From the IMG/VR virus record IMGVR_UViG_3300044765_000177, positions 1 through 60,040 of that record: 60,040 nucleotides of DNA; one strand, given 5' to 3'. The translations under genes were made by a program, and so were the position numbers. Positions 1,893-54,017 of the stretch are shown in pieces. Under the pieces are notes generated by a model. The model was given only the letters and a program-made list of their open reading frames with translations. It had not been told where the DNA came from and did no database searches. The first letter of the stretch is position 1; every line of letters begins with the position of its first letter. The DNA is from a virus.

Positions 1893-2984
1893 CTAGCGGG
1901 TGGGGGCTGCTTCCTCGCGGGCCTCGATCTGGGACCAGGCGAGACGGACACGCTCCTCGCGGGCCCGGAAGCCGTGGCTGCGGAACTCGGCCTGCGCCTG
2001 CCGGTAGGAGCGGGGCGGCTCCATGTCGTAGCGGAGCCAGCGCAGGACCACATCGAGCTGTTCGTCGGACAGGCGGGCGCCCGGGATGGGCAGTTCGACG
2101 CCGGCGACGTCGGCGAGCATCTGGAGCGTGACCCCGTCCTCGACGGGCACCTGCTCCGCCCCCGTGTCCGTGCCCGTTTCGTCCTGGGTCACGGGCTCGA
2201 TGGTCACGGCCTCGATTTCCGGGGTGACCTGTGTGACCACCGTGTGACCATCCTGGTCGGCCGCACTGTGACCGGCAGCCGTGACCGCGGGCCGGGACAC
2301 GGCCAGCGCGAGGTCCCGCTGGGTGAACGCGAGGGCCTTCACGCCGTGCTCCTGCTCCGACTTCTCCAGCCGCTCCTCGGCCTTGGCCCGCGCCTTGTTG
2401 ATCTCGGCCTGGGCTCGCGTCAGCACGTCCGCCCGGGCGATCTGACGCTCCATCTCCGCGAGGTGGCCGGCCGTCTCAGTGAGCACGTCGGTGACCGCCT
2501 CGGACCGCAGATGCCGGGCCTCGGCCGCGGCCAGGGCACGGGCGTTGCGATCGGCCGCCGACTGCTCGGCGATCCGCGCCGCCGTTCCCGCGTCGGCGAG
2601 GACGTTCCCCGCGAACAGGCGCAGCCCCATGAACAAGGCCGCGGCGACCGGCACGAACGCGAACACCTTCGCATGGCCGAGGATCAGCAGGATCGTCGCC
2701 GAGACGCCGACAGCGACCGCGGACAGGCCCAGCATCACGGCCATCCCGACCCGCGACCGCTGCCGGATCGCGATCTCCGACATGCGCAGCGCGCCGATCC
2801 ACAAGGCGTCGTACACGACGGCGATCGACCAGGCGACGACCGTTCCCGCCTTCCCGTGCACACCGATCATCTCACCGAGCTGCCCGCCGACGGTGATCGC
2901 GACCAGCGCCAGCGACGCCGCCGTCAACAGCTTCTCGATCAGGGCGAACACGTCCAGGTGGGCGTATCGGCTGAAGTGCTTCAT
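1893..2984 (-). CDS. Membrane protein: ~4 TM helices at the N-terminus, coiled-coil middle, acidic C-terminal domain; resembles DUF2637-type proteins of actinomycete conjugative elements (363 aa)
   Basis: ORF track; ATG 2984 preceded by GGAAGGAGG; architecture read from the translation; family assignment from memory. Confidence 0.8.
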   Translation of the reverse strand: MKHFSRYAHLDVFALIEKLLTAASLALVAITVGGQLGEMIGVHGKAGTVVAWSIAVVYDALWIGALRMSEIAIRQRSRVGMAVMLGLSAVAVGVSATILLILGHAKVFAFVPVAAALFMGLRLFAGNVLADAGTAARIAEQSAADRNARALAAAEARHLRSEAVTDVLTETAGHLAEMERQIARADVLTRAQAEINKARAKAEERLEKSEQEHGVKALAFTQRDLALAVSRPAVTAAGHSAADQDGHTVVTQVTPEIEAVTIEPVTQDETGTDTGAEQVPVEDGVTLQMLADVAGVELPIPGARLSDEQLDVVLRWLRYDMEPPRSYRQAQAEFRSHGFRAREERVRLAWSQIEAREEAAPTR

Positions 2985-3062
2985 GGCCCCTCCTTCCAGG
3001 GGTGGGGGGCCGCCGCGCGAGACGAGGGGGTAGACGATCGCGCGGCGGCGGACTATGGCGGG

Positions 3063-3329
3063 TCAGGTGGTGGGCTTGGGGAGGGCGGTGCAGCCAATGG
3101 CGTGGTCCTGCGCCCAGTCGAGGATCTGGTCGCGGTAGGGAAGGTCGTGGCTCTTGGTCCGGCCGCAGGGCTGGCAGGTGGCGGTGACGCGGCCGGCCGC
3201 TTCGGTGAGGTCGACGGTGGCCCGGTAGTCGTCGTAGCGAAGTCCGATGCGGGTGAGGAAGCGGGCGACGACGCCCTCGGGCCATGCCTCGGCGGGGGCC
3301 TGCGGGGCGGTCTCGATGGTGGTGGTCAT
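3063..3329 (-). CDS. Small Cys-containing hypothetical protein, paralog of 3620..3943 (88 aa)
   Basis: ORF track; shared AWPEGVVAR(F/Y)L N-terminal motif and WAQxHAxxCxAxPxPT C-terminal motif. Confidence 0.8.
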   Translation of the reverse strand: MTTTIETAPQAPAEAWPEGVVARFLTRIGLRYDDYRATVDLTEAAGRVTATCQPCGRTKSHDLPYRDQILDWAQDHAIGCTALPKPTT

Positions 3330-4815: not shown

Positions 4816-4965
4816 CAGGGTCTCCCTATCAGGTACCTGATTGGTTAGGGCCGGCCTGCGAGGTAGGAGTCGCGGTGTCCGGCCCGATCTTCATTTGTGC
4901 AGCGCCCGCGGACCGAGTCCGGTAGGAGTGGGCACAGCTAGTAGGCCGCCTCGCGGTCGGCTTGG

Positions 4966-12446: not shown

Positions 12447-13273
12447 CAGAAGTCCTCGTCGTAGACGGATTGGTCGGTGGGGTTGCGGTAGGGCTCGTAG
12501 CCGCCGGAGACGGCGCGCAGCGGGGGGCGTCCATTGGGGTCCGGCGCGGGCGCGAACTTGTCCTCGTAGCGGCGTTCGCGGATCCAGTTGGCGGACTGCT
12601 TGATGAAGCGGAACTCCTGGCCGGCCATCTCTCGGGCGTAGGCCAGGGCGGCAGCGGAGATGGCGACGGGGTCGGCTCCGGCAAGGATGGCTTCGGTCCA
12701 GGCCTCGAGGGTCCGGTCGTAGTCCTTGCTCTTGGGGTGGTTGTGCCAGAAGCGGCCGAACTCCAGCTTCTCCTCGCTGCTGATCTGGCGGCCGGGAGCT
12801 CCAGCAGAAGCTTCTTCATCTACGTGGTTGCTGTGGTTCTGGTTATGGGGTCCGGTAGCCGGACCCCTAGAGGTCCGGTTTTCGGACCCCTGGGGTCCGG
12901 TAGCCGGACCCCTAGCGTTTTGCTTAGAGGTCCGGTTTTCGGACCCCTGGCCCTCGCCTAGAGGTCCGGTAGCCGGACCCCTAGAGGTGAAGTCGGGGCG
13001 CACGAAACCGACCGCCCCAGGGATCTTGTAGAGCGCCGCACGTGTGCCTCGCCCCTGCTCCAGCAGGTTCAGCTCACCGCTCTTGACGAGAGCATCGATG
13101 GCGGTGATGACGGACGATCGGGCGGCGTTGCTGAAGCGCACCAGCTCCGCGGTGCTGACCCGTGCCAAGCCGTCGTCGCCGGTGATCCGGTTGGCGATCG
13201 CCAGCATGACGTGCCGTCCGGCCCCCTTTGACTGGGAGTGGAGCCAGACCCAGTACATGGCGTCGATGCTCAC
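12446..13273 (-). CDS. Replication initiator-like protein: N-terminal winged-helix, repeat-containing linker, C-terminal domain (275 aa)
   Basis: ORF track; position upstream of loader and helicase; N-terminal wHTH-like segment; linker encoded by the iteron array. Confidence 0.7.
   Translation of the reverse strand: MSIDAMYWVWLHSQSKGAGRHVMLAIANRITGDDGLARVSTAELVRFSNAARSSVITAIDALVKSGELNLLEQGRGTRAALYKIPGAVGFVRPDFTSRGPATGPLGEGQGSENRTSKQNARGPATGPQGSENRTSRGPATGPHNQNHSNHVDEEASAGAPGRQISSEEKLEFGRFWHNHPKSKDYDRTLEAWTEAILAGADPVAISAAALAYAREMAGQEFRFIKQSANWIRERRYEDKFAPAPDPNGRPPLRAVSGGYEPYRNPTDQSVYDEDF
12849..12984. repeat. Five palindromic 22-nt repeats inside the initiator gene; candidate origin iterons
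   Basis: GGTCCGGTAGCCGGACCCCTAG at 12849, 12894, 12963; GGTCCGGTTTTCGGACCCCTGG at 12872, 12929; adjacent lower-G+C stretch at ~12800-12848. Confidence 0.6.
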
Positions 13274-15978: not shown

Positions 15979-16950
15979 CTAGTCGACGAGCTCGCCCTCG
16001 ACGGGCTCGTCGTCGTTGGTGTCGCTGACCTCGGCGTCCATGCGCTCGGCGATCGCCATGAGCTGCTTGGACAGTTCGTCGCGGCCCTTCGGGTCGACGT
16101 GACCGGCGGCGCGGGCCTTCCTCCAGACGTCGCGAACGTCGTCCGAGGTGAGCGCGCCTTCCGCCTCGGCCAGGTAGTCGGGCCGGAGCGCCTCGATGGC
16201 GGCCACGGCTTGACTGCCGGACGGGTCCAGGGCGAGCGCGGTCGGCAGCGGCCCGGTGAGCGCCTGGCGCGGGGTGATGCCGCGGACCTCGACGACCACC
16301 ACGGGGAAGTGCTTCGTCTGGCCGCCTGCCACCCTGGTGCGCGGTTCGATCCGCAGGCTGACCGGGACGAGACCCTTGCCCTCGGTGCCGGACAGCACCA
16401 TGTCGACGGTGCCGCCCCACTCGTTGGCCGCGTAGAAGCTGTGCGTCTCGGCCCGCCACACGCCGACGTCCGGCATGTCGGGGAGGATCACGTTCAGGCG
16501 GGAGGTGGCGGCGCAGACCTTGTCCTTGCGGTACTGGTCCTGCCGCAGCAGGTGCCAGTCCTCACCGAACTCGGCCAGGCACAGGCAGGGCATGCGCGAG
16601 ATCTGCTCGGTCTGCCCGTCGCAGCGGCGCTGGCAGCCGCCCTTGGTCCACATCTCGTTGTACTGGTTCAGCGGGTCACCGGGCGGGAGGAGGGCGTCGA
16701 TCTGCTCCGCCTTGGTGATCACGCGGAACTGGGGAGCGCCGTTGCCCTGGGGCTGCCAGCGTTCGACGTCGCCGCCCCAGGCTTCGGCGGCGGCCTGCGC
16801 GTAGTGCTCGGCGTGGGAGGTGACCACCCACGTCTTGGACTTGACCGGGCGGGCCCGCTTGTCGGGGTCGGGGTTCGGCACGGACCAGCCGGTGCGGAGC
16901 CGGCCGAGTTCGCGGGCCTGGCGCTGGAGGGTGATGATGCGGGAGCCCAT
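15979..16950 (-). CDS. Conserved-looking early protein with a Cys cluster (CQRRCDG...PCLC...C), adjacent to the exonuclease; possible recombination partner (323 aa)
   Basis: ATG 16950 overlaps the exonuclease stop; function not assignable by eye. Confidence 0.8.
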   Translation of the reverse strand: MGSRIITLQRQARELGRLRTGWSVPNPDPDKRARPVKSKTWVVTSHAEHYAQAAAEAWGGDVERWQPQGNGAPQFRVITKAEQIDALLPPGDPLNQYNEMWTKGGCQRRCDGQTEQISRMPCLCLAEFGEDWHLLRQDQYRKDKVCAATSRLNVILPDMPDVGVWRAETHSFYAANEWGGTVDMVLSGTEGKGLVPVSLRIEPRTRVAGGQTKHFPVVVVEVRGITPRQALTGPLPTALALDPSGSQAVAAIEALRPDYLAEAEGALTSDDVRDVWRKARAAGHVDPKGRDELSKQLMAIAERMDAEVSDTNDDEPVEGELVD

Positions 16951-17795
16951 CAGGCTGCCTTTCGGGTGGTCTGGTTCTCGGCCGGGGGCGGCAGGAGCGC
17001 GGGGTAGGTGGTGGGGGCGGCGTGGAGCCACTTGGTGGTTTCCAGGGCGCCGCGGAAGGCGCGGTGGGCGCGCCGGTTGCCGGGCATCGGCACGAGGGCG
17101 TGGGAGCGGGAGCGGAGGTTGAGGATTCCGGTGCGCTGCACGGGCGGCACCGGCTGCTCGGTGTCGTCCGGGAGGAGCACGGTCTCCGCGTAGCGCAGGG
17201 CGGCGAGCTGCAGCGTGTACTCGGGGTACACCGACGAGGCGGGCCGGGTCGCCGACGTCTTGTAGTCGACGAGCCAGGACTGCTTGGCCCGGCGCCCCTT
17301 GATGCGCCGCCAGCTGGTGCGCAGCAGCATCACGACGTCGCCGGTGCCGGCGTAGCCGAGCCTGCGGTGCAGGAACGTCATCTCGGCGGCGAGGATGTCC
17401 TCGGCGATGTCGACGTCCCAGCGCTGCCAGAACAGGACGAGCTGGCGCGCGTAGGGGTCGACCTCGGGGTCCTCCGGGTAGGGGGCGCCGAGCGCCATCA
17501 TGTGGGCCCGGTGGTGGATGCGGCTGCCGAGGTTCTTGGCTTTGTCGCTGGCGTTGCGATGGACGGCCTTGATGTCCTTCAGCAGTTGCTCACGGTCGGT
17601 TGTGGCGCGGCGGGCGACTTCGATGCGGTGTTCGAGGACCCATTCGGCGGTGAGCTTGACGGCCCACGGCGGGATGGCGTGCTTGGCGACGCCGACGGAG
17701 AGGACGTTGGTGACGGAGACGAGGTCGGGTCCGCCGGCCGGGTCGGTGTAGTACCGCCCGTTGTCGGTGCCCTTGGCGTACTTCGGGTCCGTCAT
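16950..17795 (-). CDS. PD-(D/E)XK (RecB/Cas4-like) exonuclease (281 aa)
   Basis: Motifs GTGDVVML, WLVDYKTS, YTLQLAALRYA; ATG 17795 overlaps the upstream stop. Confidence 0.8.
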   Translation of the reverse strand: MTDPKYAKGTDNGRYYTDPAGGPDLVSVTNVLSVGVAKHAIPPWAVKLTAEWVLEHRIEVARRATTDREQLLKDIKAVHRNASDKAKNLGSRIHHRAHMMALGAPYPEDPEVDPYARQLVLFWQRWDVDIAEDILAAEMTFLHRRLGYAGTGDVVMLLRTSWRRIKGRRAKQSWLVDYKTSATRPASSVYPEYTLQLAALRYAETVLLPDDTEQPVPPVQRTGILNLRSRSHALVPMPGNRRAHRAFRGALETTKWLHAAPTTYPALLPPPAENQTTRKAA

Positions 17796-22695: not shown

Positions 22696-22898
22696 GACTT
22701 CTCCTCGTGAGTTATGTCGGCGGGGGTGACACCCAGCGCCTCCGCGAGCTTCCGGATGTTCTCGTCGCTCAGGCCGGCCTTGCCGTTCTGGACCTTCGAC
22801 AGGTGTGTCTTGTCGATGCCGGTTCGTTCCGAGAGCATTGCAAGGCTCATCTGCAGAGCCTCCCGTCTGAAGCGGATTGCGCTGGAGTGCGGTCTCAC
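22692..22898 (-). CDS. Cro/C1-type XRE HTH regulator, Cro-like (68 aa)
   Basis: LQMSLAMLSERTGIDKTHLSKVQNGK; divergent from the CI-like gene. Confidence 0.85.
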   Translation of the reverse strand: MRPHSSAIRFRREALQMSLAMLSERTGIDKTHLSKVQNGKAGLSDENIRKLAEALGVTPADITHEEKS

Positions 22899-22940
22899 GC
22901 CTCAGAACGTAGCCGGACGAGAGCGTGGATGCAATCCCTC

Positions 22941-23069
22941 AGAGAGCCTTTTTGGCTACTCGCCAGAGCCTCGCTAGCTACTCAGGAGAGCCTTGGTGGC
23001 ACAGGCGAGGACTCACGGACCGGAACGCGTAGTGCGCCCCATGCAACCCAAACGCTCCCTTTGAGAGCC
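22941..23069. promoter_or_regulatory. Genetic-switch operators: AGAGCC-N5-(G/A)GC repeats at exact 22-bp phasing (AGAGCC at 22943, 22965, 22987) plus a looser copy at 23064
   Basis: Repeats read directly in the 238-nt lower-G+C gap between the divergent Cro-like and CI-like genes. Confidence 0.6.
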
Positions 23070-23136
23070 CAAGTGCAGGTCAAACGGCTCAATCCCCGCT
23101 AGGTGGTTGCATGGATCTAGTGCATGATGGGGTTTC

Positions 23137-23676
23137 ATGGACCACGCCCGAGAGTGGGAACTCTCAGACTGGAAGCGACTGGGACGCGCGTTCGCCGCCC
23201 AGCGGGAAGAGGCCGGCTACACGCAGGTCAGTGCAGCCCAGGCACTCGGTGTCAGCCGAGGCCCGATCCAGGCCATCGAGCGCGGCCGCCAGGCGAACGG
23301 GCAGCCTTTCACCCGGGTCACGCAGACCATGCGCACCTACGCGCGCCTCCTCGGATGGACCGACACATCGCCGGCCAGAATCCTCGGCGGGGAGGAACCA
23401 GAACAGGCCACTCCCCCCGTTTCCCAGGAGGCGGCAGATGCCGCACCCGGAGTCCCGTCCGCCATCGACCGTGAGCTGCGGTCGGGCAGGACGCTGGACC
23501 ACACCGTCGTGCACCTCGGGGAGGAGGACGACGACGACACCCGGATCATCGTCGTGCTCAAGGGCTCGGACGACATCAGCGACGAGGAACTCGACGAGCT
23601 GTGGCTGAAGTGGCGCCGGGCTCGACGTCAGCTTCAGGCAATCCCAGGCGAAACGGACACCCCGTCAGACTCATGA
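23137..23676 (+). CDS. CI-like repressor: N-terminal XRE HTH, acidic C-terminal domain (179 aa)
   Basis: REEAGYTQVSAAQALGVSRGPIQAIERG; position and orientation. Confidence 0.8.
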   Translation: MDHAREWELSDWKRLGRAFAAQREEAGYTQVSAAQALGVSRGPIQAIERGRQANGQPFTRVTQTMRTYARLLGWTDTSPARILGGEEPEQATPPVSQEAADAAPGVPSAIDRELRSGRTLDHTVVHLGEEDDDDTRIIVVLKGSDDISDEELDELWLKWRRARRQLQAIPGETDTPSDS

Positions 23677-23771: not shown

Positions 23772-24176
23772 ATGTGGGTCATGCACGTTGAGCGTGTTGA
23801 GGGCGAGTACATAGAACCCGAGATCATCGATCTCGAAGACGGCAGCGGCTGCCTGTTCAGGCTGCACGCGACAGACATCGACGAGGACGGCCCGAAGTAC
23901 CTGGCCGACCTCCTCACCGACCAGGCGCAGCGCTGGGCCCCCCGCCCGCCTGGCTCGCCCCTGGGCCCCGTCATCCCCGTCACCTGGCTGCGGTCCCCCC
24001 TGGCGCACGACCGCTTCGCCATCGGCGTCGAGGACGGCCCGCACGCGATCGTGTACACGTGCCACCCGGATCTGATCAGCCAGCGGGCCGCGGACTATCT
24101 CAGCCGCCTCGACACGGAGCGCTCTCCGTACTGGCAGCGTGTACCCAAGGGCTACCACCACCGGGACGGCCGGTAG
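23772..24176 (+). CDS. Hypothetical protein between repressor and integrase (134 aa; start uncertain, track start 23715)
   Basis: ORF track 23715..24176; in-frame ATG at 23772. Confidence 0.65.
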   Translation: MWVMHVERVEGEYIEPEIIDLEDGSGCLFRLHATDIDEDGPKYLADLLTDQAQRWAPRPPGSPLGPVIPVTWLRSPLAHDRFAIGVEDGPHAIVYTCHPDLISQRAADYLSRLDTERSPYWQRVPKGYHHRDGR

Positions 24177-24195
24177 CCGAGCGCAAGGGGGCACG

Positions 24196-25539
24196 ATGGC
24201 CTACGCCGAGAAGGTCTACAAGGTCAAGAACGGCAAGCAGACCAAGCAGTACACCTGGCGGGCCCGCTACAAGCGGCCGGACGGCACCTGGGGCAGCGAG
24301 CCCGGATTCCCGACGAAGACGCTGGCCAAGGAGTGGGGCGAGCAGCAGGAAGCCGCCATCCGGTCCGGCACGTGGATCGACCCGGAGAAGGCGCGCACCA
24401 AGTTCGGCGAGTGGGTGCAGATGTGGAAGACGGCCAACGTCAAGCGGCCCCGCACCCAGAGCAGTCGCGCCTACCTCCTGGACAAGCTGCTGCTGCCGGA
24501 GTGGGAGCACACCCCGCTGCAGGAGGTCAACAACGTCTTCGCCGTGAAGGCGTGGGCGACCCGGGCGGCCAAGCCGAACGGCAAGCACGACCCGGACACC
24601 GTCGCGCAGGCCCGGAGCCTGCTGTCGACGATCCTGTCCGGCGCCGAGGACGCCGGGTACATCCCGGCCAACAAGCTGTACGGGCGGCGCATCCTCGTCG
24701 GCGACGGGCACCACGAGGAGGAAGAGGAGGTGTGGGCGCAGCCCGACGAGATCTACCGCATCTACCAGCGCCTGAGCGGGGTGCACGCGCTCATGCCGCT
24801 GGCGGACTGCTATCTGGGGCTGCGCTGGGGCGAGCTCGCCGGCCTGCACCGCGACAACTGCCTCCTCAAGCGCGAGGAGAGGATCGACGGCAAGCCGTTC
24901 GTGCGGCACGTCGTCCGGGTGGACGCGAAGACCGGGTCGCTGCACGAGGACACCTTCGAGCTCGACGCCGACGGCCTGGAGGAGTGGCACCGGGCGGAGG
25001 ACGCCCGCCTCGAGGAGTACCGGGCCAAGGGGTGGAAGGCCAACCGGCGCAAGCCGCCCAAGAACATCGTGAAGCTGTACCTGGGGCCGCCCAAGAACAA
25101 GTACTCGGCGCGCGAGGTGGACGTCCCGGAGTTCCTGGTGCGCCTGCTCGCCGAGCACATCGAGGCGTGGCCGCACGAGCATCCGTTCTCCACGCCGGGC
25201 GGGCAGTTCTGGCGGCGCGGCAACTTCACGCGCGCCCAGCTGCGGCCCGCGGCCGACGGGCGGGAGGCGGTCCCCCGCAAGCGCGGGTTCGCCGGCCGGG
25301 AGGCGTGGGAGCCGATCCTGCCGGGCTTCACGATGCGCGGGGCCCGGCACACCCACGACACGTGGATGAAGGACGACGGGGTGGACAGGGCGCTGCGGTT
25401 CTTGACGATGGGGTGGGTGCCGAAGGACATTGAAGGGACCTACGAGCACGTGACGCCGGAGATGCGCAGGCACCGACTGCGGAGTCTGGAGGCGCGGTGG
25501 GAGCGCGGGATGCGGGTGGCGTCCCGGGCCGCACGGTGA
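24196..25539 (+). CDS. int: Tyrosine integrase (447 aa)
   Basis: ATG 24196; LGLRWGE (Arg), RGARHTHDTW (box II), EGTYEHV (Tyr); adjacent to the attP-like tRNA fragment. Confidence 0.9.
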   Translation: MAYAEKVYKVKNGKQTKQYTWRARYKRPDGTWGSEPGFPTKTLAKEWGEQQEAAIRSGTWIDPEKARTKFGEWVQMWKTANVKRPRTQSSRAYLLDKLLLPEWEHTPLQEVNNVFAVKAWATRAAKPNGKHDPDTVAQARSLLSTILSGAEDAGYIPANKLYGRRILVGDGHHEEEEEVWAQPDEIYRIYQRLSGVHALMPLADCYLGLRWGELAGLHRDNCLLKREERIDGKPFVRHVVRVDAKTGSLHEDTFELDADGLEEWHRAEDARLEEYRAKGWKANRRKPPKNIVKLYLGPPKNKYSAREVDVPEFLVRLLAEHIEAWPHEHPFSTPGGQFWRRGNFTRAQLRPAADGREAVPRKRGFAGREAWEPILPGFTMRGARHTHDTWMKDDGVDRALRFLTMGWVPKDIEGTYEHVTPEMRRHRLRSLEARWERGMRVASRAAR

Positions 25540-25618: not shown

Positions 25619-25626
25619 GACCTGGG

Positions 25627-25668
25627 TGGGCGCGGACGGTTTCGAACCGCCGACATCCTGCTTGTAAG
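25627..25668 (-). other. tRNA 3-prime half (anticodon loop to discriminator; loop CTTACAA suggests Val-TAC): attP core candidate
   Basis: Minus strand CTTACAAGCAGGATGTCGGCGGTTCGAAACCGTCCGCGCCCA gives a good T-arm and acceptor 3-prime strand; no matching 5-prime acceptor or anticodon-stem strand upstream. Confidence 0.7.
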
Positions 25669-26185
25669 AGCGGATGTCCGCCGGTACCCGACTTGAGCGG
25701 CTACGCGATTCAGCAGGGATGTTCGAGCGGAAAGCGCAGTTCAGGGGGCTGGTGAGCGGCGCATCTTTCAGCACGAGCCACTCCGCACTACCTTGGCAGA
25801 ACCTCGGCAGGTACTCGGTAGCGCTCGCGGTCGTCCCCTAAATATCCCCTAAGGGATCACCGCGTTGTTGCACGTCAGACGGTCAGACGGCCCCCCGCCT
25901 CCCACGGCGGAGAGGTGCGGGGGGCCGCCCCAAGTGCCGGCCCCGGCCACCTCGGGGGGGCAACCTCTGGTGCGAGGCCGGCACGTCTGTGGTGCTTCGA
26001 CCTGTCCTGTTGCCTGTCGGTGCAGGTCGATGCCGCAGTTCACCCGAAGGAGTGAACAGACGTTCGATTCTTGGACACTACATGGAGCCCTGCGGCATAT
26101 GCCAGACGGGCCGCAGGGATCAAGATCGAAGAATGAGTCAGATCTGCTGCTGACTTATGATCATGAGCGGTAAAGCGTTGAGCGG

Positions 26186-26416
26186 GTGCCAGCCGATCAA
26201 CCCGAGTGGGTCCCCGCGGCCCGCCGTGCGGTCGGCGACCGCATCCGCGTGCGACGCCTCCACCAGAACATGACCCAGGAGTCCCTCGCCCACGCGGCCG
26301 GAATCGACCGGTCCACGGTCCAGCGCATGGAAGCCGGCAGCGAGATGAAGCTGACGCACCTCTTGCTGGTGGCTCACGCTCTGCGGGTGCACGTCACCGA
26401 CCTCCTGCATGACTGA
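26186..26416 (+). CDS. XRE-family HTH regulator (76 aa)
   Basis: NMTQESLAHAAGIDRSTVQRMEAG; GTG start. Confidence 0.75.
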   Translation: MPADQPEWVPAARRAVGDRIRVRRLHQNMTQESLAHAAGIDRSTVQRMEAGSEMKLTHLLLVAHALRVHVTDLLHD

Positions 26417-28557: not shown

Positions 28558-28736
28558 CAGGCGGTCGCGTGCTTGCCGACGATGGCCCAGAACTCGCCGC
28601 TGTCGAGGCTGTCGATGTCGACGGCCCCGTACTGCTCCAGGATGTCCGCGAGGATGGCGTCGACGTCGTACTCGCCGTCGCTGGCGTCGGTGGCGGTGAC
28701 GATCTGGTCGCGGAGGTCGCGGCTGGTGAAGGTCAT
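28557..28736 (-). CDS. 59-aa acidic hypothetical protein (below the ORF-track cutoff)
   Basis: ATG 28736 preceded by GAGGGGGA; stop overlaps the next ATG. Confidence 0.55.
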   Translation of the reverse strand: MTFTSRDLRDQIVTATDASDGEYDVDAILADILEQYGAVDIDSLDSGEFWAIVGKHATA

Positions 28737-28838
28737 GAGGTTCCCCCTCGCTCGGGCTTCAGGCTGTTCCTTCGGCCATGACCCAACTATGCATCACGTG
28801 CTGCAAGGTTGGCAAGGGGTTCGACGTAGACTCCCCGC

Positions 28839-29039
28839 GTGGCCGACTTCGAATTTCCCCCTGACCTGATCGAGCTGGAACGTTCCTCCTGGGCCGCGCT
28901 GCAGGCGGGCGAGCTGACCCCGGACCTGGCGGCCGCCGTGCAGGCGGGGGTCACGGCGTTCGCGGCCGAGGGCGGGCACGACCGGTACGCGGTGGAGATG
29001 GGGCTCAAGCGGGCCGTCCGGCACGCCGGCGCGACCTGA
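28839..29039 (+). CDS. Hypothetical protein (66 aa), possibly leaderless
   Basis: ORF track; GTG start 6 nt after TAGACT; followed by a 9-bp-stem hairpin at 29040-29068. Confidence 0.55.
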   Translation: MADFEFPPDLIELERSSWAALQAGELTPDLAAAVQAGVTAFAAEGGHDRYAVEMGLKRAVRHAGAT

Positions 29040-29629
29040 GGCCGCGGCGGAGGGGGTCTGCCGCGGCCTCCGCCCCCGAAAGCAGCAGCCCGGCCCTGGG
29101 TTCCACGCCGGGCCGGGCGCCAGCAACAGCACACCCGCGCTTGACTCGTAGCCAATCTCGGATACGAGCAGGCTACCGCTGGCCACCGACAACGCCGGGG
29201 CAAGCAGCCGCAGGGCCTCCCGTGGGGAGCCGGGAGGTGCGGCGGGCCCCGCCATCGCAGCACGGCGGGGCCCGGGAGGGTTCCGCCTGGGGGGCTGGGA
29301 ACCCGTGCACACACGATGCACCACAATCCGGCCAGAGGGAAAGAGACCGGCCACGGGTTTCTGCCGGACACGCTGGCGCCCCGCCAGGACGGGGGAGCCT
29401 AGCGGGGCGTGCAGCCAGTCTGGCACGCACCCCTGACAGGACGAGGGTGTTCCGCGTACCGTGTGCGGGCGGCCTGCCTCGTTCGCAGCGACCCCCTCGG
29501 GGGCGTGGGGATTACCCCGCTGGCAGGCCGCACCCACACCTTGGGGAGGCGCGATGAGCGACACGTGGTGGGGCTAGGCCCCGGACAGCACACCGCCCCC
29601 GCCCAGTACAGGCGGGGGCGGTCGCGTGT
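29040..29629. other. 590-nt ORF-free, very G+C-rich region packed with perfect stems; candidate structured RNA and/or recombination site
   Basis: Only Arg/Pro/Gly-junk ORFs. Stems include GGGCCCCGCC/GGCGGGGCCC, AACCCGTG/CACGGGTT, GGCCTGCC/GGCAGGCC, and CCGCCCCCGCC/GGCGGGGGCGG at 29596-29625. Confidence 0.5.
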
Positions 29630-30649
29630 TCAGAGGCCGATGTCTTCGCTGGCGGCGTCGGTCCACTTGTCGGCTTCGCGGATGTAGCCCCAGAAGGCGG
29701 GGCTGTTTTCGGCGTGGCCGGACTGTTCGCGGATCTTCTCTTCGCGCTTCCCGGCCCGGCGCGACGTGGTGATGAACCCGGCCCGCATGGAGTGGCCGGT
29801 GAGGCGGACGGCGAGTCCGGCGCGTTCGGCGTTGCGGGCGATGATCTCGCGGACGGCTTCGGCGGAGAGTGCGCGGTCGCCGAGGCGGCCGTGGACGGTG
29901 ATGGGCAGGAAGGCGGGGCCGGTGGTGATGCCTGCGGCGGCGCGCCAGGTGAGCCAGGCGCGGACGGGGCAGGTGTCGGGGTTTTTGCCGTAGCCGACGA
30001 CGACGTCGCGGGGCGGGCGGCCCTTGACGGCGGGCACGTGGACTTCGAGGCCTTGGCTGACGTGGATGATGCCGTCGGCGCGGAGGGCGGCGACTTCGGC
30101 GGAGCGTCCGGCGATGGCGAAGGCCATGAGCCAGAGGGCGCGGTCGCGGAGGCCGGTGAGTCCGTCGGCGACGGCGGCGTTCATCTGGCGCAGCTGTTCG
30201 GGCGTGACGGCGGCAGCTTTGCCCCGGCCGCGCGCCTGCCGTTCGGGGTCGTTCTTGAGCGGCTTGAGGGCTTGCCGGGCGGCGACGGTGGCGGCCTTGG
30301 GGACTTCGACGCCGTGCTCGTTCCGGGCGGTGACGGTGACACCGGTGATCCTGCGGTCGATGCTGTTGGGCGCGGCGAGCTTGATGGTGTCGAGCCAGAC
30401 GACGAACCCGACGAGCGTCCCCTTGGTGACGGCGGTGGACGGCAGGCGGCTGCCGGTGCGTTCGGCGAGCCAGTCGTGGAACTGCTCCCAGAGTGCCCAG
30501 TCGTTGGCGTAGCCGCGCTTGGTGTTGTGGGGGCGGATGGCGTCGAGGTGCTTCTCGGCTGCCCCTTCCATGGCGTGCAGGACGGCGAGCGTCGCAGCGT
30601 CGTAGGCGGCGGGGGCGGCGTCAGGCTGGCGCGGGATGAGCGCGGTCAT
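29630..30649 (-). CDS. Cre/Xer-like tyrosine recombinase without an obvious arm-binding domain (339 aa)
   Basis: AGRSAEVAALR (Arg), GHSMRAGF (HxxR), FWGYIRE (Tyr); Cre-like N-terminal helical core. Confidence 0.85.
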   Translation of the reverse strand: MTALIPRQPDAAPAAYDAATLAVLHAMEGAAEKHLDAIRPHNTKRGYANDWALWEQFHDWLAERTGSRLPSTAVTKGTLVGFVVWLDTIKLAAPNSIDRRITGVTVTARNEHGVEVPKAATVAARQALKPLKNDPERQARGRGKAAAVTPEQLRQMNAAVADGLTGLRDRALWLMAFAIAGRSAEVAALRADGIIHVSQGLEVHVPAVKGRPPRDVVVGYGKNPDTCPVRAWLTWRAAAGITTGPAFLPITVHGRLGDRALSAEAVREIIARNAERAGLAVRLTGHSMRAGFITTSRRAGKREEKIREQSGHAENSPAFWGYIREADKWTDAASEDIGL

Positions 30650-31056
30650 ACAGTGGCCCGCTCTCCCTCAAGCGCGTCAATCGTGGGACACGGGTACGGG
30701 ATGTACGCCACCCACTCTTCGGCCCTCGGCCCGGTGGATCGGCGCACGGAGCATTCGGCGCACCACCTCTGTCCCAAGTGAGTGACCGGGCGGTGCAGCT
30801 TGCGCACGCGAGCAACGGCCGCCGTGGCGGGGGGCTCGGGCGCTTCCGCATCCAGGATCGCGCCGAGAGCGATGGCCAGCCCGATGTCGCCAGCAGTGCG
30901 GTCGCGCCAGAGGATCGTGGCTTCGGTGATCGCCTTGAGCTTCTTGCGGAGTTCGTCGCGTTCGATGCGTCGCTCGCTGGCGGCATCGAACCAGTACTTG
31001 GTGGCTGCGATGTGCTCTTGAATGCCTGCGGCGGGCGCTATCTGAGGCTCGGTCAT
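30646..31056 (-). CDS. Hypothetical protein coupled to the recombinase (136 aa)
   Basis: ATG 31056; stop overlaps the recombinase ATG (ATGA). Confidence 0.65.
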   Translation of the reverse strand: MTEPQIAPAAGIQEHIAATKYWFDAASERRIERDELRKKLKAITEATILWRDRTAGDIGLAIALGAILDAEAPEPPATAAVARVRKLHRPVTHLGQRWCAECSVRRSTGPRAEEWVAYIPYPCPTIDALEGERATV

Positions 31057-31208
31057 GCTCCGCATTCTACCAATTTGTCGCCCGCGATATGGCATGTTAT
31101 CGAGAGCTCACCCACCCCCCGTCGTGTCACAACCCGGTGACGGCCGGTCACCCGCGCGCCGCCCGTGCTCTACGGTGGTCCGACGTTCAACCAGCCTGTG
31201 GGGGGCAC

Positions 31209-31838
31209 ATGCGCATCCGTACCACCGCGGCCTCGGCCGCCCTTCTCCTCGCCACGCTCACCGCCTGCGGAGGCGGCGACAGCAGCGACGACGCGGCGGC
31301 CGACACGAAGCCGGCGCCAGCCGCGAGCAAGAGCGTCGACTGCACGAGCCAGACGGTCAGCCAGGCCGACTGGGTGAAGTACTGCGCCGACAAGGCCAGC
31401 GGCCAGAGCCCGGAGGCGGGTTCGACGGACCTAAAGTTCGGCGAGTCGTACACCTGGCCGGACGGGCTGAAGGTGTCGGTGACCGGCGCGAAGGTGTTCA
31501 CGGACTACGCGGCCGACTACGCCGAGACAGCGGAGCCGGGCCAGACGGACTTCCGGGTGGAGCTGAAGGTGACCAACACGGGCAAGGCGCCGGCGGACTT
31601 GGGTGACCTGTCGGTGATCGTGGAGGGGGCGACGAACGGCGGCGAGGCCGCGGCGACGATGTTCCAGAACGGCTCGCAGCCGCTTGAGGGCAGGTTGGCG
31701 CCGGGGGTGACGGCGACGAAGAACAGCGACAACCAGCTGGAGACGAAGTACGGGCGGAAGGTCGTGGTCACGGTGCAGCGGGCCAGCGACGACTTCAGCC
31801 TGGAGTTCCCGGAGTTCACCGGCGAGATCACCGGCTGA
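31209..31838 (+). CDS. Secreted lipoprotein, DUF4352-like beta-rich domain (209 aa)
   Basis: Signal peptide with lipobox LLATLTAC; ATG 31209. Confidence 0.8.
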   Translation: MRIRTTAASAALLLATLTACGGGDSSDDAAADTKPAPAASKSVDCTSQTVSQADWVKYCADKASGQSPEAGSTDLKFGESYTWPDGLKVSVTGAKVFTDYAADYAETAEPGQTDFRVELKVTNTGKAPADLGDLSVIVEGATNGGEAAATMFQNGSQPLEGRLAPGVTATKNSDNQLETKYGRKVVVTVQRASDDFSLEFPEFTGEITG

Positions 31839-32019: not shown

Positions 32020-32349
32020 TCACACTCCAGTTCGATCACGTGAGACCCGCTGGGCCTTCAGCAGCAGCCGGGTCCGCTGGACCATCAGCACAGCGACGGC
32101 GAGCAGCACCAGCGTGCGGGCCGACCGGAGCGCCATCAGCACGCACTCGTCGCCCTGCCAGATCGTGGCCAGCACGGTGTACACGCACAGGGCGCACACC
32201 GCGGCCGCGAAGGACATGAGGTTGCGGCCGACTTCGCTGCGCCACCAGGCGGCCCGCAGGTGGTAGATGACGGCGAAGGCGGCGCAGGCCGCGGCGGCCA
32301 GCGTCGACGCGGTGACGTTCACCCATTCGTCGACACCGAGGTCTCTCAT
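32020..32349 (-). CDS. Membrane protein with ~3 TM helices, lysis-cassette associated (109 aa)
   Basis: ORF track; hydrophobic helices; ATGA coupling to the upstream gene. Confidence 0.7.
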   Translation of the reverse strand: MRDLGVDEWVNVTASTLAAAACAAFAVIYHLRAAWWRSEVGRNLMSFAAAVCALCVYTVLATIWQGDECVLMALRSARTLVLLAVAVLMVQRTRLLLKAQRVSRDRTGV

Positions 32350-51796: not shown

Positions 51797-53536
51797 TCAG
51801 AATCCGACCGCCACCCGGCTCTTCGCCTTCGGCCGCCGCAGGTATCCGTCCAGACCCATCACCGTCGCCGCGATCCCGTCGATGCGGGCCTGGCTCTTGC
51901 GCCGGTCCGGCTTCGTGGGCCGGTAGTTGTCGTTGCCGTCCGCGATCGTCTCCACGCAGCCGGCCATCCACCGCAGGATCGGATGCCCGCCGTGCCGGAA
52001 CCTCTGCTCCAGCAGTAGCCGGTCCAGCTCCTTGCATGCGGGCGACAGCCCGAGGAACGTCTGGCTGATCGGCGTCACCTTCACGCCGCGCCGTGTCTCC
52101 CGGTCCACGTTCTGCACGAGCTGCCCGGCGAACATCCGGTCGTAGCCGATCCACTGCACGTCGAAGTGCTTGCAGTCCGCCAGCACTTGCTTCTCGATCG
52201 CGTCGTAGTCGATCGCATCGCCCTCGGTCAGCTTCAGGAAGCCCTCACGGGCCCACTGCGCCAGCGGCACCTGCAGATGCCGCTGCAGATCCTCGAGCCG
52301 CTCCGACGGCAGCCAGAACCTGGAGACCAGCTCGACCTCGACGCCAGGCTGCTTCGACTCCACCGCCAGCACCCAGGCGCTGAGGTCCGACACTGCGGAC
52401 AGGTCCAGGCCGCCCCACGCCCGTCGGCCCCTCAGCGTCTCCGCGTCCACCATTCCCGCCACCCGGTCCCAGGACCGGACGTCGATCCAGCGGGTCGACG
52501 CCTTCTCGCGGATGTTCAGCGACAGCCGAAGGAACGTCGGAAAGTACGAGGGCGTAGCCTGCGCCTTGCCCGCCTCGCGCCGCAGATACGCCAGCGTCGG
52601 CGACGTGCCGAGGCCCGGGTTCGCGCGGCGCCAGGTCCGCTCGTCGAACGGGTCATCGGTCTCATCTGCGGCCCAGATCACGCCGTAGTGCGCCGGATCC
52701 TCCACGACGTGCTCGGCGACCTTGCGGGTGTAGCTGTGCTTCTCGTCGTAGATCGAGCCCTCTTGCGCGTCATCCGCGGTCGTGATGTACACGATCAGCG
52801 GCTGATCCCGCGCACCGGTGCCCGTCTCGATCGCGTCGATCAGGTCCCGGCTCTTGTGGACGTGGACCTCGTCGATCACCGCGCCCGAGACGTTCAGGCC
52901 GTGCGCCGTCTCCGCGATCCGCGACAAGGCCCGGAAGACCCCTCCCGTCCGCGGCACCCGGATCACCGAGGTGAGCACCTCGGCGCGGCCCTTCACCGCC
53001 TTCGACGTCTGCGCCATCCGCTTCGCGTCGTCGAACACCCGCTTGGCCTGCTCCAGCGAGCCGGCCGCCGCATACACCTCGGCACCCGTCTCGCGGTCCG
53101 CGAGCAGCAGCGTCAGGCCGATCCCCGAGGAGAGCGTGCTCTTGCCGTTCTTCCTGGGAATCTCGATCCAGCACGAGCGCACCACCCGCACCGGCCGGTC
53201 CAGCTCCGGGTCATGCCACAGCCAGCCGAACACCGGCAGAATCACCCACAGCTTCTGCCAGCCGGCCAGCCGCAGGAACGTGCCGCCCCACCGGCCCTTG
53301 GTGTGCTTGAACGACTCGATAGCCCGCAGCGCCCGCCGGGCGGCATCCACGTCGAACCAAGCACCCGCCTGCTCCGGCATCTGGAACGCCGACACCAGCG
53401 GCCGGGACAACAGAGCGTCGGCGATCTCCTCGTCCGGCATACCCAGCGCGTGCAAGGCCGCCCGGGGAACGGGCAGACCCTCCTCACGGTCCTGCGCGGA
53501 GAGCTGCTCAGTCGAAGGGGTCGTCTTCGTCGCCAT
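51797..53536 (-). CDS. Terminase large subunit (579 aa; alternative GTG 53545)
   Basis: Walker A-like EIPRKNGKST, VIDEVH; ATG 53536 after GGAGGG. Confidence 0.9.
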   Translation of the reverse strand: MATKTTPSTEQLSAQDREEGLPVPRAALHALGMPDEEIADALLSRPLVSAFQMPEQAGAWFDVDAARRALRAIESFKHTKGRWGGTFLRLAGWQKLWVILPVFGWLWHDPELDRPVRVVRSCWIEIPRKNGKSTLSSGIGLTLLLADRETGAEVYAAAGSLEQAKRVFDDAKRMAQTSKAVKGRAEVLTSVIRVPRTGGVFRALSRIAETAHGLNVSGAVIDEVHVHKSRDLIDAIETGTGARDQPLIVYITTADDAQEGSIYDEKHSYTRKVAEHVVEDPAHYGVIWAADETDDPFDERTWRRANPGLGTSPTLAYLRREAGKAQATPSYFPTFLRLSLNIREKASTRWIDVRSWDRVAGMVDAETLRGRRAWGGLDLSAVSDLSAWVLAVESKQPGVEVELVSRFWLPSERLEDLQRHLQVPLAQWAREGFLKLTEGDAIDYDAIEKQVLADCKHFDVQWIGYDRMFAGQLVQNVDRETRRGVKVTPISQTFLGLSPACKELDRLLLEQRFRHGGHPILRWMAGCVETIADGNDNYRPTKPDRRKSQARIDGIAATVMGLDGYLRRPKAKSRVAVGF

Positions 53537-54017
53537 CGTCGCCACCCTCCGGCGGCGTCAGCCGGCCACGCGCGGACGGTGACAGGCCCAGCTCGCCGAT
53601 GTACCGGGCCAGTTGCTGCCGGTACTGGCCCACCACCGTCGTCGCGCCGTTCTTCTGCCAGCCCCGTTCGCCCCTCATCAGCAGCCCGTGCAGGGAGATT
53701 TCCCGCTCGCACTGGTCGATCCGGGCGACACAGATGCAGTAGTCGGTGACGGTCTGGGTGTCGACCTCGGCCAGGCCTGCCGTGAACTTGAGCACCGGGA
53801 CCACGCGGCGCCACTCGCGGCGGGCGATCTCCCGGCAGCGCGCGTTGATCTCCCGCTGCCGGTCATCGCCGCGGACGGCCGGGAACGATTCGAGCCAGTT
53901 CGGCTCGGCCAGCTCCGATGGGGGGAGCTTGACGCCCTCGCGGACAGGCCGGCGGTTCGGGTTGCCCTCGCGGACGATCTGGAGAGGGGGCTTCGGCTTT
54001 CTCCCGGCGACTGCCAC
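53508..54017 (-). CDS. Terminase small subunit, P27-like (169 aa; track start 54068 has poor codon bias)
   Basis: GRKPKPPLQIVREGNP...; GTG 54017. Confidence 0.75.
   Translation of the reverse strand: MAVAGRKPKPPLQIVREGNPNRRPVREGVKLPPSELAEPNWLESFPAVRGDDRQREINARCREIARREWRRVVPVLKFTAGLAEVDTQTVTDYCICVARIDQCEREISLHGLLMRGERGWQKNGATTVVGQYRQQLARYIGELGLSPSARGRLTPPEGGDDGDEDDPFD

Follow-up and report, generated by a model that had tools for sequence, protein, structure and literature searches.

The window analysed here is a stretch of 60,040 nt of viral DNA (IMG/VR record IMGVR_UViG_3300044765_000177, positions 1 to 60,040), which corresponds to the unintegrated genome of a temperate Streptomyces siphophage(-like) virus. 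Between positions 29040 and 29629, this genome contains a gap without open reading frames (ORFs) which, as the initial annotation had noted, lies directly 3' of a tyrosine recombinase gene (29630-30649, minus strand; 339 aa; Pfam and PHROG matches). Comparison with related phages and prophages shows that the gap is a hypervariable slot for accessory genes in its cargo-free state, in which three conserved non-coding modules lie side by side: (i) block C (29075-29205); (ii) block A (29202-29352); and (iii) block B (approximately 29375-29629). The features of these modules suggest that they act at the RNA level, at the boundary of two convergent transcription programmes; we assign to this reading, which is drawn from sequence comparison, a probability of about 0.5.

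An Empty Slot for Accessory Genes

A sample of 58 genome loci was assembled around homologues of the 339-aa recombinase (the recombinase-anchored sample). Nearly all of these loci keep the same order: lysis genes, recombinase, a variable stretch, a small ORF (28839-29039 in the window), a GntR-like gene and an Xre-like gene. The similarity of the gap to its relatives is patchy and modular. Block B adjoins the recombinase gene, and block A is separable from block B: in two loci (L005 and L060), about 2 kb lie between both blocks, including a tRNA-Asn gene in L005. In L076 and L077, block C directly follows the small ORF and is parted from block A by about 2 kb of cargo; the two blocks abut in L075 and L102. 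The distance from the small ORF to block A is 0.16 kb in the window and 0.3-2.8 kb in a second sample of loci, anchored on the small ORF.

The initial annotation had proposed, among other candidates, a large structured non-coding RNA. Since the modules are parted by cargo genes in relatives, over 0.3-2.8 kb or more, a single 590-nt RNA is ruled out. The structured-RNA part of the proposal holds for block A and for one hairpin of block B (B1), where it rests on covariation and strand bias, and it is suggested for block C. In consequence, the gap is unlike the GOLLD, ROOL and OLE-like RNAs: it is not one contiguous, co-inherited unit, and blocks C, A and B occur independently.

The cargo of the slot in relatives includes: (i) Ku (L012, 8977-9903; L017, 7968-8873); (ii) an ATP-dependent, LigD-like ligase (L011, 7121-8107); (iii) a GmrSD_C protein, type IV restriction-like (L012, 8144-8803; L033, 8148-8801); (iv) tRNA-Asn (L005, 7695-7769; L014, 7364-7438); (v) endonuclease VII, a junction-resolving nuclease (L098, 8546-9025); and (vi) a protein with TROVE (Ro60-like) and VWA domains, located beside blocks A and B (L132, 5572-7191). 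Among these, Ku and the ligase belong to end-joining repair. Genes for Y-RNA-like partners usually lie near those of bacterial Ro proteins.

Temperate actinobacteriophages have variable central accessory regions (moron or defence islands) between their lysis and immunity cassettes. The slot resembles such islands in its location between the lysis and lysogeny modules and in its variable cargo of defence and repair type. Unlike the described islands, the slot is empty in the window, and conserved non-coding modules flank the insertion points. To our knowledge, neither insertion-flanking non-coding modules of this kind nor a swappable recombinase (see below) have been described.

Coding Potential, Folding and Known RNA Families

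The sequence of the gap agrees with its first description as ORF-free, and the coding signal was absent in all tests. The G+C content at third codon positions (GC3) exceeds 0.9 in the flanking genes, a value that no reading frame of the gap attains. Six gap-crossing ORFs had no Pfam match (E<=1), four gap-crossing ORFs tested against PHROGs had no match (E<=0.01), and alignments of relatives display frame-breaking indels across the gap. On these grounds, a decayed gene, which the initial annotation had left open as a competing explanation, was searched for and rejected.

Inverted-repeat analysis of the gap recovered every stem that the first reading had named. They comprise, apart from a hairpin at the left end (see below), the stems at 29088-29118 (inverted repeat I9), 29243-29274 (I13), 29305-29321 (GTGCA/TGCAC), 29408-29428 (GCGTGC/GCACGC) and 29471-29529 (GGCCTGCC/GGCAGGCC; I1). 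The final stem exists too, but its real position is 29592-29622 (I8), about 3 nt away from where it had been placed. The lower-G+C stretch was located at 29141-29177, as claimed, and falls inside block C.

Folding z-scores of the gap were -4.47 (plus strand) and -6.40 (minus strand) with 100 dinucleotide shuffles, and -6.85 (plus) and -4.53 (minus) with 16 shuffles; as the two runs give opposite orders, which strand has the lower z is within sampling noise. The background, taken from 92 strand-windows of the same length over the 60 kb, has a z of -0.6 (standard deviation 1.0; minimum -2.8). The gap is an extreme folding outlier on both strands and the most structured 590-nt stretch of the window. 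Hence, its hairpin density is not a by-product of 74% G+C.

Regarding known RNA families, the earlier statement that none matches is correct. Rfam yielded no match in the whole window at gathering thresholds, only chance-level matches over 28700-29900 at E<=10 (scr5239, with 23 bits vs. a gathering score of 64, the ybhL leader and others) and no match in five relatives at E<=0.1. A tRNA/tmRNA scan of the window found none, and the gap holds no tRNA or fragment thereof. Nucleotide similarity searches gave no match among cultured phages; among plasmids, only the recombinase gene matched.

Block A: A Conserved Multi-Hairpin Element

Block A is an element of about 150 nt (29202-29352, minus strand), from whose conservation and covariation we infer a conserved structured RNA on the minus strand. 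Its architecture was derived from 87 distinct copies, read on that strand. From 5' to 3', the following parts can be differentiated: (i) a conserved 5' stretch (UCUAUCC..GUGGCUGGUU.GUGGUGCAUGGUG; 29352-29322); (ii) P5, a small hairpin (29321-29305); (iii) P4, with variable stems and a C-rich loop, CCCCCRG (29304-29278); (iv) P3, GC-rich (29273-29244); and (v) P1 (29243-29239 paired with 29211-29207), which encloses P2. The latter is a near-invariant hairpin of 22 nt (CCUCCCG-GCUCCCCA-CGGGAGG; 29216-29237), which reads CCTCCCG-TGGGGAGC-CGGGAGG on the plus strand. In its stem, an arm resembling an anti-Shine-Dalgarno (anti-SD) sequence is paired with an arm resembling a Shine-Dalgarno (SD) sequence, and its loop is C-rich.

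Block A is known in more than 90 Streptomyces phage and prophage sequences, and its position and orientation in the genome are fixed. P2 occurs as a single copy in the window, where none is expected by chance. Scanning for its exact pattern gave at least 80 IMG/VR contigs, and 79 of the 80 listed carry it once; among the genome loci, 12 have it. Of the contigs listed, L125 alone has two P2 copies (2133-2154 and 4837-4858), which share one orientation with 2.7 kb between them, and the block A model recognises both.

This covariance model (R1) has one match in the window (29202-29346, minus strand; 119.5 bits), 80 matches in viral loci and matches in 14 of the 58 recombinase-anchored loci. The viral copies of block A were chosen by their P2 sequence, whereas the sample anchored on the small ORF is independent of P2. 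This second sample came from an alignment-based search; the 66-aa ORF alone, as query, led to one locus. The model matches 26 of its 81 loci, always on the strand opposite to the ORF. P2 stem and core loop are identical in 22 of the 25 distinct copies of the P2-independent sample; the variants among them imply that P2 is near-invariant and not absolutely invariant. In one variant (CUUCCCG, in L214), the changed position still pairs, as U.G, on the minus strand but not on the plus strand.

The initial annotation had recommended a covariation analysis, and stems P3 and P1 of block A indeed covary above both shuffled and slid controls. RNAalifold, run on MAFFT and on covariance-model alignments, recovers P3 and P2 only: the former with covariation (one pair is U-A in 25 cases, U.G in 22 and C-G in 14) and the latter as an invariant stem. 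P1 rests on pair counts, and P4 on per-sequence folding. Taken together, P3, P1 and P2 have 14 pairs changed on both sides vs. 6.1 +/- 1.3 in shuffles, with a covariation score of 0.180 vs. 0.087 in shuffles and 0.05-0.08 in slid controls. The P4 hairpin with a C-rich apex appears in 42 of 71 copies vs. 10% of shuffles. The strand bias points in the same direction throughout: of 76 copies of block A, 53 fold more stably as the minus strand and, for P3 alone, 59 of 76 do so (p = 5e-9), and G.U pairs in block A number 298 (minus) vs. 158 (plus).

A second class of 12 P2 copies (L027, L028, L030, L032, L035, L063, L083, L086, L089, L109, L114 and L136) has only P2 and the sequence GGTGCAT in common with the main class, and its flanks are otherwise unrelated (GGCCCGGGATGGTC...GGTAGGCATATG). 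This class is the strongest sign that P2 itself may be the selected unit.

Three other explanations of the motif were tried and rejected: (i) a plus-strand ORF starting from the conserved ATGCACC (29317), in view of 1-nt indels among relatives; (ii) P2 as the SD of a downstream gene, as it stands too near to a start codon that relatives do not conserve; and (iii) a cassette site of integron attC type, as P2 occurs once per contig (79 of 80 listed) and no recombinase family is fixed beside it. The block A motif corresponds to no Rfam family, and its motif strings have no match in the literature.

Block B: A Promoter, a Mini-ORF and a Shared Terminator

Block B (about 29375-29629) is read on the plus strand, apart from its first hairpin. 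This hairpin, B1 (29377-29409), has a conserved C-rich loop on the minus strand (CUCCCCCGU) and lies just upstream of the plus-strand promoter. In the alignment its stem covaries (AGG/CCU, UCG/CGA, ACG/CGU), and of 10 distinct copies, 9 fold more stably as the minus strand. The interval from B1 to the -35 hexamer contains a near-invariant element (29408-29429; minus strand, GTGCCA.ACTGGC) that is palindromic in part; it was used as an anchor in the comparison of block B copies and is a candidate operator or regulatory site.

The candidate promoter is of sigma-70 (HrdB) type, with CTGACA as -35 (29433-29438) and TACCGT as -10 (29457-29462). Both hexamers are conserved in 10 distinct copies, with a spacer that is always 18 nt long and variable in sequence; a generic promoter scan did not call it. 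Transcription would start at about 29468-29470. At the 5' end of the predicted transcript, there is an optional stem-loop (29461-29539, plus strand) with 18-nt arms (29461-29478 and 29522-29539) and two small hairpins inside. It is present in the window, L021, L037, L022, L059 and L020, and as a variant in L060; it is precisely missing from L005, L026, L031 and L029.

The stem-loop is followed by an SD sequence (GGGGAGG; 29543-29549) and a mini-ORF of seven codons, MSDTWWG-stop (29554-29577), whose stop codon lies in the loop of a small hairpin (29570-29582). Then comes a perfect hairpin of 12 bp with a 7-nt loop (29592-29622), 14 nt past the mini-ORF stop on the plus strand and 7 nt past the recombinase stop on the minus strand, which we read as a terminator common to both convergent units. 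Across 16 units, the terminator is kept as CGCCCCCGCAGCC..GGCTGCGGGGGCG with a loop of 2-7 nt, at 13-17 nt from stop to stem; the variable length of the loop argues against a recombinase core site.

All 16 distinct units keep the SD, 4-6 nt, an ATG and an in-frame D-[T/S]-x-W-G-stop. The mini-ORFs have 7, 8, 14 or 15 codons, with length changes in whole codons only, and synonymous changes occur (ACC/ACG, GCC/GCT, GAC/GAT, GGC/GGA), which argues that the mini-ORF is probably translated. Two types of peptides can be distinguished: (i) single-unit peptides, i.e., MSDTTWG, MSDTAWG, MSDTYWG, MSDTWWG, MDDTTWG, MSDDTAWG, MDDDTTWG, MSDDTDWG and MRRDS[I/V]WG; and (ii) tandem-duplicated peptides, i.e., MSDTTWG-N-SDTAWG, MSDTAWG-L-SDTAWG and MGDDTTWG-N-SDTTWG. 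None of them has a match in the searchable literature.

Block C and the Hairpin After the Small ORF

At the left end of the gap, a hairpin (GGCCGCGGC(GG)..(CT)GCCGCGGCC; 29040-29068, plus strand; inverted repeat I5) has 14-nt arms that are 93% complementary. It begins 1 nt past the stop codon of the small ORF and is terminator-like, without a U-tract. Next to it, on the 3' side of the small ORF, lies block C (29075-29205, plus strand in the alignment). This conserved non-coding module contains (i) a hairpin (29088-29118) whose stem covaries in the alignment around the conserved loop GGGGTTCCACG; and (ii) conserved unpaired stretches (CAGCAAC..CAGCA(A/C)ACCCG and CCAC(C/T)GACAACGCCGGGG). The nhmmer matches of block C come from 27 loci at E<=1, 13 of these at E<1e-3. 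With the same look as block A, these features suggest that block C may be another conserved structured RNA-like element.

A Swappable Recombinase Beside the Gap

The 339-aa family keeps the full catalytic set of tyrosine recombinases: R168, K209, H286, R289, H312 (W in a plasmid clade) and Y322. The earlier label of Cre/Xer-like recombinase stands as regards the tyrosine recombinase; its Cre/Xer-like part cannot be upheld at the level of sequence, as a search against solved structures gave no match for this protein or for a second recombinase of the window (see below). Streptomyces genomes contain many homologues with 75-95% identity. More distant relatives (40-60% identity) occur on Streptomyces plasmids and on the plasmid-phage ZL12, where genes fill the equivalent downstream position; in the plasmid homologues, a pentapeptide-repeat gene is found there.

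The recombinase gene is preceded by a 149-aa ORF (30646-31095, minus strand), with a 4-nt overlap between the two, and the start of this ORF overlaps the start of a divergent 249-aa ORF (31089-31838, plus strand). Given both overlaps, there is no non-coding DNA upstream of the recombinase operon. The same arrangement of small ORF and recombinase is found in a plasmid homologue (L001).

In contigs that bear P2 without a homologue of the 339-aa protein, a site-specific recombinase of another family lies between the element and the lysis genes. These can be (i) tyrosine recombinases of 307 aa (L101, 4711-5634; L105, 7426-8349); (ii) XerC/D-like tyrosine recombinases with a SAM-like N-domain (L102, 3704-4798; L069, 11397-12434); or (iii) small serine resolvases (L081, 4760-5347; L127, 9550-10146). 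The mini-ORF unit, in turn, has as neighbours serine resolvases (L116, 2952-3581; L099, 2842-3540), tyrosine recombinases 29% identical to that of the window (L067 and L129) and, in L070, a two-gene operon ending in a XerC/D-like recombinase (2155-3249), where the unit is upstream of the operon and on the same strand. Comparison of these loci shows a single slot that is filled by unrelated recombinases through non-orthologous replacement. Blocks A and B thus stand beside four recombinase types (divergent tyrosine, XerC/D-like, small serine resolvase and the family of the window), so that neither is likely to be a specific recombinase site. Our guess, from the families involved, is that these internal recombinases may serve multimer resolution. 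Phages with a replaced slot recombinase also carry a separate integrase at attP.

Several genomes have only fragments of the 339-aa gene (e.g., residues 294-339 or 315-338), with blocks B and A still in place after them (L050, L052, L058, L059, L060 and L061; the match lies at about 6001 in each, and at 1902-2148 in L058). Therefore, the recombinase was lost repeatedly while the non-coding modules were retained.

The Integration Site and a Second Integrase

The initial annotation had also considered the gap as the recombinase target site with accessory arms. The comparison does not support this proposal, as attP lies elsewhere: its core is a 47-nt 3' part of tRNA-Val(TAC), from the anticodon stem-loop to the acceptor end, at 25625-25671, 3.4 kb from the gap. 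Over these 47 nt, it shares 95.7% identity with the tRNA-Val genes that flank integrated relatives in L006 (9848-9920) and L018 (11792-11864). About 85 bp upstream of the core ends the gene of a second integrase (24139-25539, plus strand; 466 aa; phrog_1, 3e-30), which has integrase motifs and on which Pfam is silent. The attP at 25.63 kb belongs to this 466-aa integrase. The tRNA-Val match with the integrase beside it implies that the window is the unintegrated form, and the search for long-range direct repeats acting as attL/attR within the window, which found none, is consistent with this. Several viral contigs share the layout of an integrase adjoining the Xre-like gene.

In integrated relatives, synteny is unbroken across the gap, and the prophage-host junctions are past the Xre-like gene: host genes begin 200-700 bp beyond it, in a context that differs between genomes, with tRNA-Val(TAC) in L006 and L018, tRNA-Arg in L021, bacA in L050 and L040, and a response regulator plus an M1 peptidase in L037. 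The 339-aa recombinase is 85-92% identical in prophages at these different host sites and, hence, it does not set the integration site. A tRNA adjoining the recombinase was tried as attB and rejected, being inconsistent across loci. The gap, for its part, contains no tRNA-derived core and no arm-type direct repeats; all the direct-repeat families of 28700-29700 are at 28858-28950, within the small ORF. This corrects an easily made mis-annotation, since the recombinase beside the gap is not the integrase in this widespread group of Streptomyces prophages, and bears on integration vectors and on the definition of prophage ends.

Possible Functions of the Modules and Alternative Explanations

If the modules act at the RNA level, each would have its own part. 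Block C, with the hairpin at 29040-29068, would form the 3' end of the plus-strand transcript of the lysogeny side. Block A would either end the late/recombinase transcript as its 3'-terminal domain or be a small RNA (sRNA) derived from that transcript. Its covarying stems would present C-rich, anti-SD-like loops (GCUCCCCA in P2 and CCCCCRG in P4, with the B1 loop being similar), and the likeliest activity of these loops would be to pair with the G-rich ribosome-binding regions of target mRNAs, in the mode of the 6C sRNA; the tandem hairpins might also stop and stabilise the transcript.

The 6C sRNA of Actinobacteria (Mai et al., 2019, PMC6486639) is an RNA of high-GC Gram-positive bacteria, with stem-loops whose C-rich loops bind mRNAs at G-rich, SD-like sites. 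Similarly, the minus-strand hairpins B1, P4 and P2 have conserved C-rich loops on covarying or conserved stems. Block A is unlike 6C in that (i) it has no Rfam model match and consists of four or five hairpins plus a conserved 5' stretch; (ii) it is phage-borne, at a fixed position of the phage genome; and (iii) its stem P2 is near-invariant and pairs an anti-SD-like with an SD-like arm.

Block B would be a tiny plus-strand unit with a promoter, an optional leader hairpin, an SD, a translated seven-codon ORF and a terminator. A ribosome on the D-T-x-W-G-stop peptide, or stalled at it, would abut the terminator stem, so mini-ORF translation could tune terminator read-through, which in the convergent layout would be antisense to the recombinase gene. 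Leader-peptide attenuators and arrest peptides are known from trp, pyrBI, erm and tnaC. Block B is like them in its order of promoter, strong SD, very short conserved ORF and terminator at 13-17 nt past the stop, and in L070, though in no other locus, the unit also has a same-strand operon downstream. It is unlike them in that the gene past the terminator is convergent in the window and in most relatives, with read-through giving antisense RNA, and in that D-T-x-W-G resembles no described leader.

The region distal to int in lambda contains the tI terminator and the sib retroregulator, with attP between int and sib. As in lambda, the gap is structured, non-coding and directly 3' of a tyrosine recombinase gene, with a possible control from the 3' end. 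Unlike in lambda, attP is 3.4 kb away beside a different integrase, and the modules adjoin unrelated recombinases and are missing from most copies of the 339-aa gene.

Several points weigh against an action at the RNA level. The function of every module is something that we infer from its sequence. As for block A, most copies come from a search that required P2, with only 26 in the unbiased sample; the near-invariance of the P2 stem, and not of its loop alone, is left unexplained by simple loop-mediated pairing; no consistent minus-strand sigma-70 promoter was found upstream; and the 6C covariance model had no match over 28700-29900 (E<=10) or in five relatives (E<=0.1). As for block B, the W-G codons double as the 5' arm of the stop-codon hairpin, and hence the conservation of the peptide may be partly at the RNA level. 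Furthermore, the mini-ORF unit is convergent in most loci and upstream on the same strand in L070, layouts in which read-through would have opposite effects. Lastly, the search for terminator-like sites with a T-run gave zero over 28700-29750, where no hairpin ends in a U-tract. Streptomyces terminators often lack U-tracts, so their absence does not exclude termination.

The strongest alternative, possible but less likely, is plain transcriptional insulation. The gap would then be a stack of intrinsic terminators, some of them bidirectional, between the minus-strand late/recombinase operon and the plus-strand lysogeny/cargo genes, and its conserved sequences would be boundaries kept by recombination among mosaic phages, with no regulatory RNA function. 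The gap does lie between convergent genes, and GC-rich hairpins stand directly after stop codons, as intrinsic terminators do (29040-29068 and 29592-29622). P1/P2 is 10-25 nt past a plus-strand ORF stop in many relatives, each module is flanked by cargo insertion points, and the missing promoter of block A fits as well. However, terminators need no conserved loops, no near-invariant stem-loop of 22 nt and no conserved unpaired stretches of 30 nt; no hairpin of the gap has a U-tract; and the conserved promoter, SD and in-frame mini-ORF of block B exceed what a terminator requires.

An extension of the RNA-level reading, which we regard as doubtful, is that blocks A and B form an undescribed two-part regulatory system (a phage small RNA bearing anti-SD-like C-rich loops, plus a translated D-T-x-W-G micropeptide) at the swappable-recombinase slot. 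The micropeptide would be either a ribosome-arrest sensor that gates read-through of the shared terminator or a free hexapeptide signal; for the latter idea, the variable x residue and the tandem duplication are reminiscent of phage communication peptides. If true, recombinase expression or the lysis-lysogeny state would be coupled to a cellular signal.

It is unlikely that part of the gap is a cis site (res, lox or dif-like) at which the 339-aa recombinase performs multimer resolution, inversion or excision, a version of the target-site proposal that leaves integration aside. The idea draws on the gap being the only sizeable non-coding DNA by the recombinase operon, with several inverted repeats, next to an enzyme with a complete catalytic set whose relatives reside on Streptomyces plasmids and ZL12, where multimer resolution is plausible; moreover, XerC/D-like enzymes and small serine resolvases, which are classic resolution enzymes, occupy the slot in other phages. 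Against it, no sub-block tracks the 339-aa family: block A accompanies it in 14 of 58 loci, and block B and the optional stem-loop are missing from many. Blocks A and B are also found beside unrelated recombinases, and plasmid homologues have a coding gene at the gap position. Neither palindrome has the fixed 6-8 bp spacer of lox, FRT and dif, since the spacer of P2 (7-bp arms) varies from 8 to 11 nt and the hairpin at 29592-29622 has loops of 2-7 nt among copies. No block is inverted in any relative, and the only direct repeats reported are those of the small ORF.

There is a low probability that P2 is recognised in cis by a protein or host machine that controls the fate of the late/recombinase transcript, such as an antiterminator (boxB-N), a processing factor (RNase III, as at lambda sib) or the ribosome, as its arms mimic anti-SD and SD. 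Stem and loop are near-invariant amid divergence, down to class-2 copies that have nothing but P2 and GGTGCAT in common with the others; the loop accepts insertions of 1-3 nt, confined to one of its sides; and the position at the end of the minus-strand operon is fixed. Nevertheless, no candidate binding protein co-varies with P2, and as few as a quarter to a third of the phages of the group, approximately, have this hairpin, which is therefore not essential.

Finally, an RNA-primed origin for extrachromosomal prophage replication is highly improbable: recombinase relatives on plasmids and a plasmid-phage would fit it, and there is precedent in central non-coding regions expressing an RNA that extrachromosomal actinophage prophages of parABS type require for replication (Wetzel et al., 2020, PMC7157519), but the present phage has an integrase, an attP, integrated relatives, its own DnaB and helicase loader and an iteron-like array (12849-12988), with no partition genes among the scanned neighbours. 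The likeness to those mycobacteriophages, which lack an integration cassette, is limited to a central ORF-free region and a proposed RNA-borne function; no partition-protein domains were found among the neighbours of the gap.

In any case, no new kind of biology is invoked: leader-like ORFs, small RNAs, promoters and intergenic terminators are well known. Neither Rfam nor the searchable literature contains the motif of block A, the mini-ORF family (D-T-x-W-G) or the swappable-recombinase slot, all three of which are widespread in Streptomyces prophages. We know of very few phage-encoded regulatory RNAs or micropeptides in Actinobacteria. If block A or the mini-ORF were functional, they would add a new layer of lysogeny control in the main antibiotic-producing genus.

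The Phage Genome and Its Layout

Read on the minus strand, the genome runs from the structural genes and then the lysis genes through the recombinase, the gap and the lysogeny-side genes to attP and integrase, the immunity switch and, last, the replication genes. The terminase (51797-53545) is 70% identical to that of phage Rowa and is followed by the portal; an ORF of 1471 aa is read as the tape measure by its size and position. The holin is at 32020-32349. The lysogeny-side region, with genes on both strands, includes the small ORF, a GntR/T5orf172-like protein and an Xre-like protein with a helix-turn-helix (HTH) domain (26186-26416). Rowa has only the structural module in common with this phage and uses a serine integrase. 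The papers on the Samy prophage, considered as possibly relevant, were set aside as unrelated, since Samy uses a serine integrase.

The early/replication genes encode DnaB, a helicase loader, a beta clamp and a Gp3-like protein (15979-17031, minus strand; Pfam 'recombination directionality factor-like', 2.6e-41). Despite the latter, no serine integrase was found among the scanned ORFs of the window. Just upstream of the helicase-loader and DnaB genes, the iteron-like array consists of 26-nt units (GGTCCGGTAGCCGGACCCCTAGAGGT), with a small hairpin within each unit, and is probably the phage replication origin. A divergent pair of HTH genes (22697-23676) comprises a minus-strand gene read as Cro-like (about 22697-22852) and a plus-strand gene read as CI-like (23138-23676). 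The intergenic region between them, of about 290 bp, has a lower G+C content and several copies of (C/G)AGAGCC-type motifs, which are probably the operators of the immunity switch.

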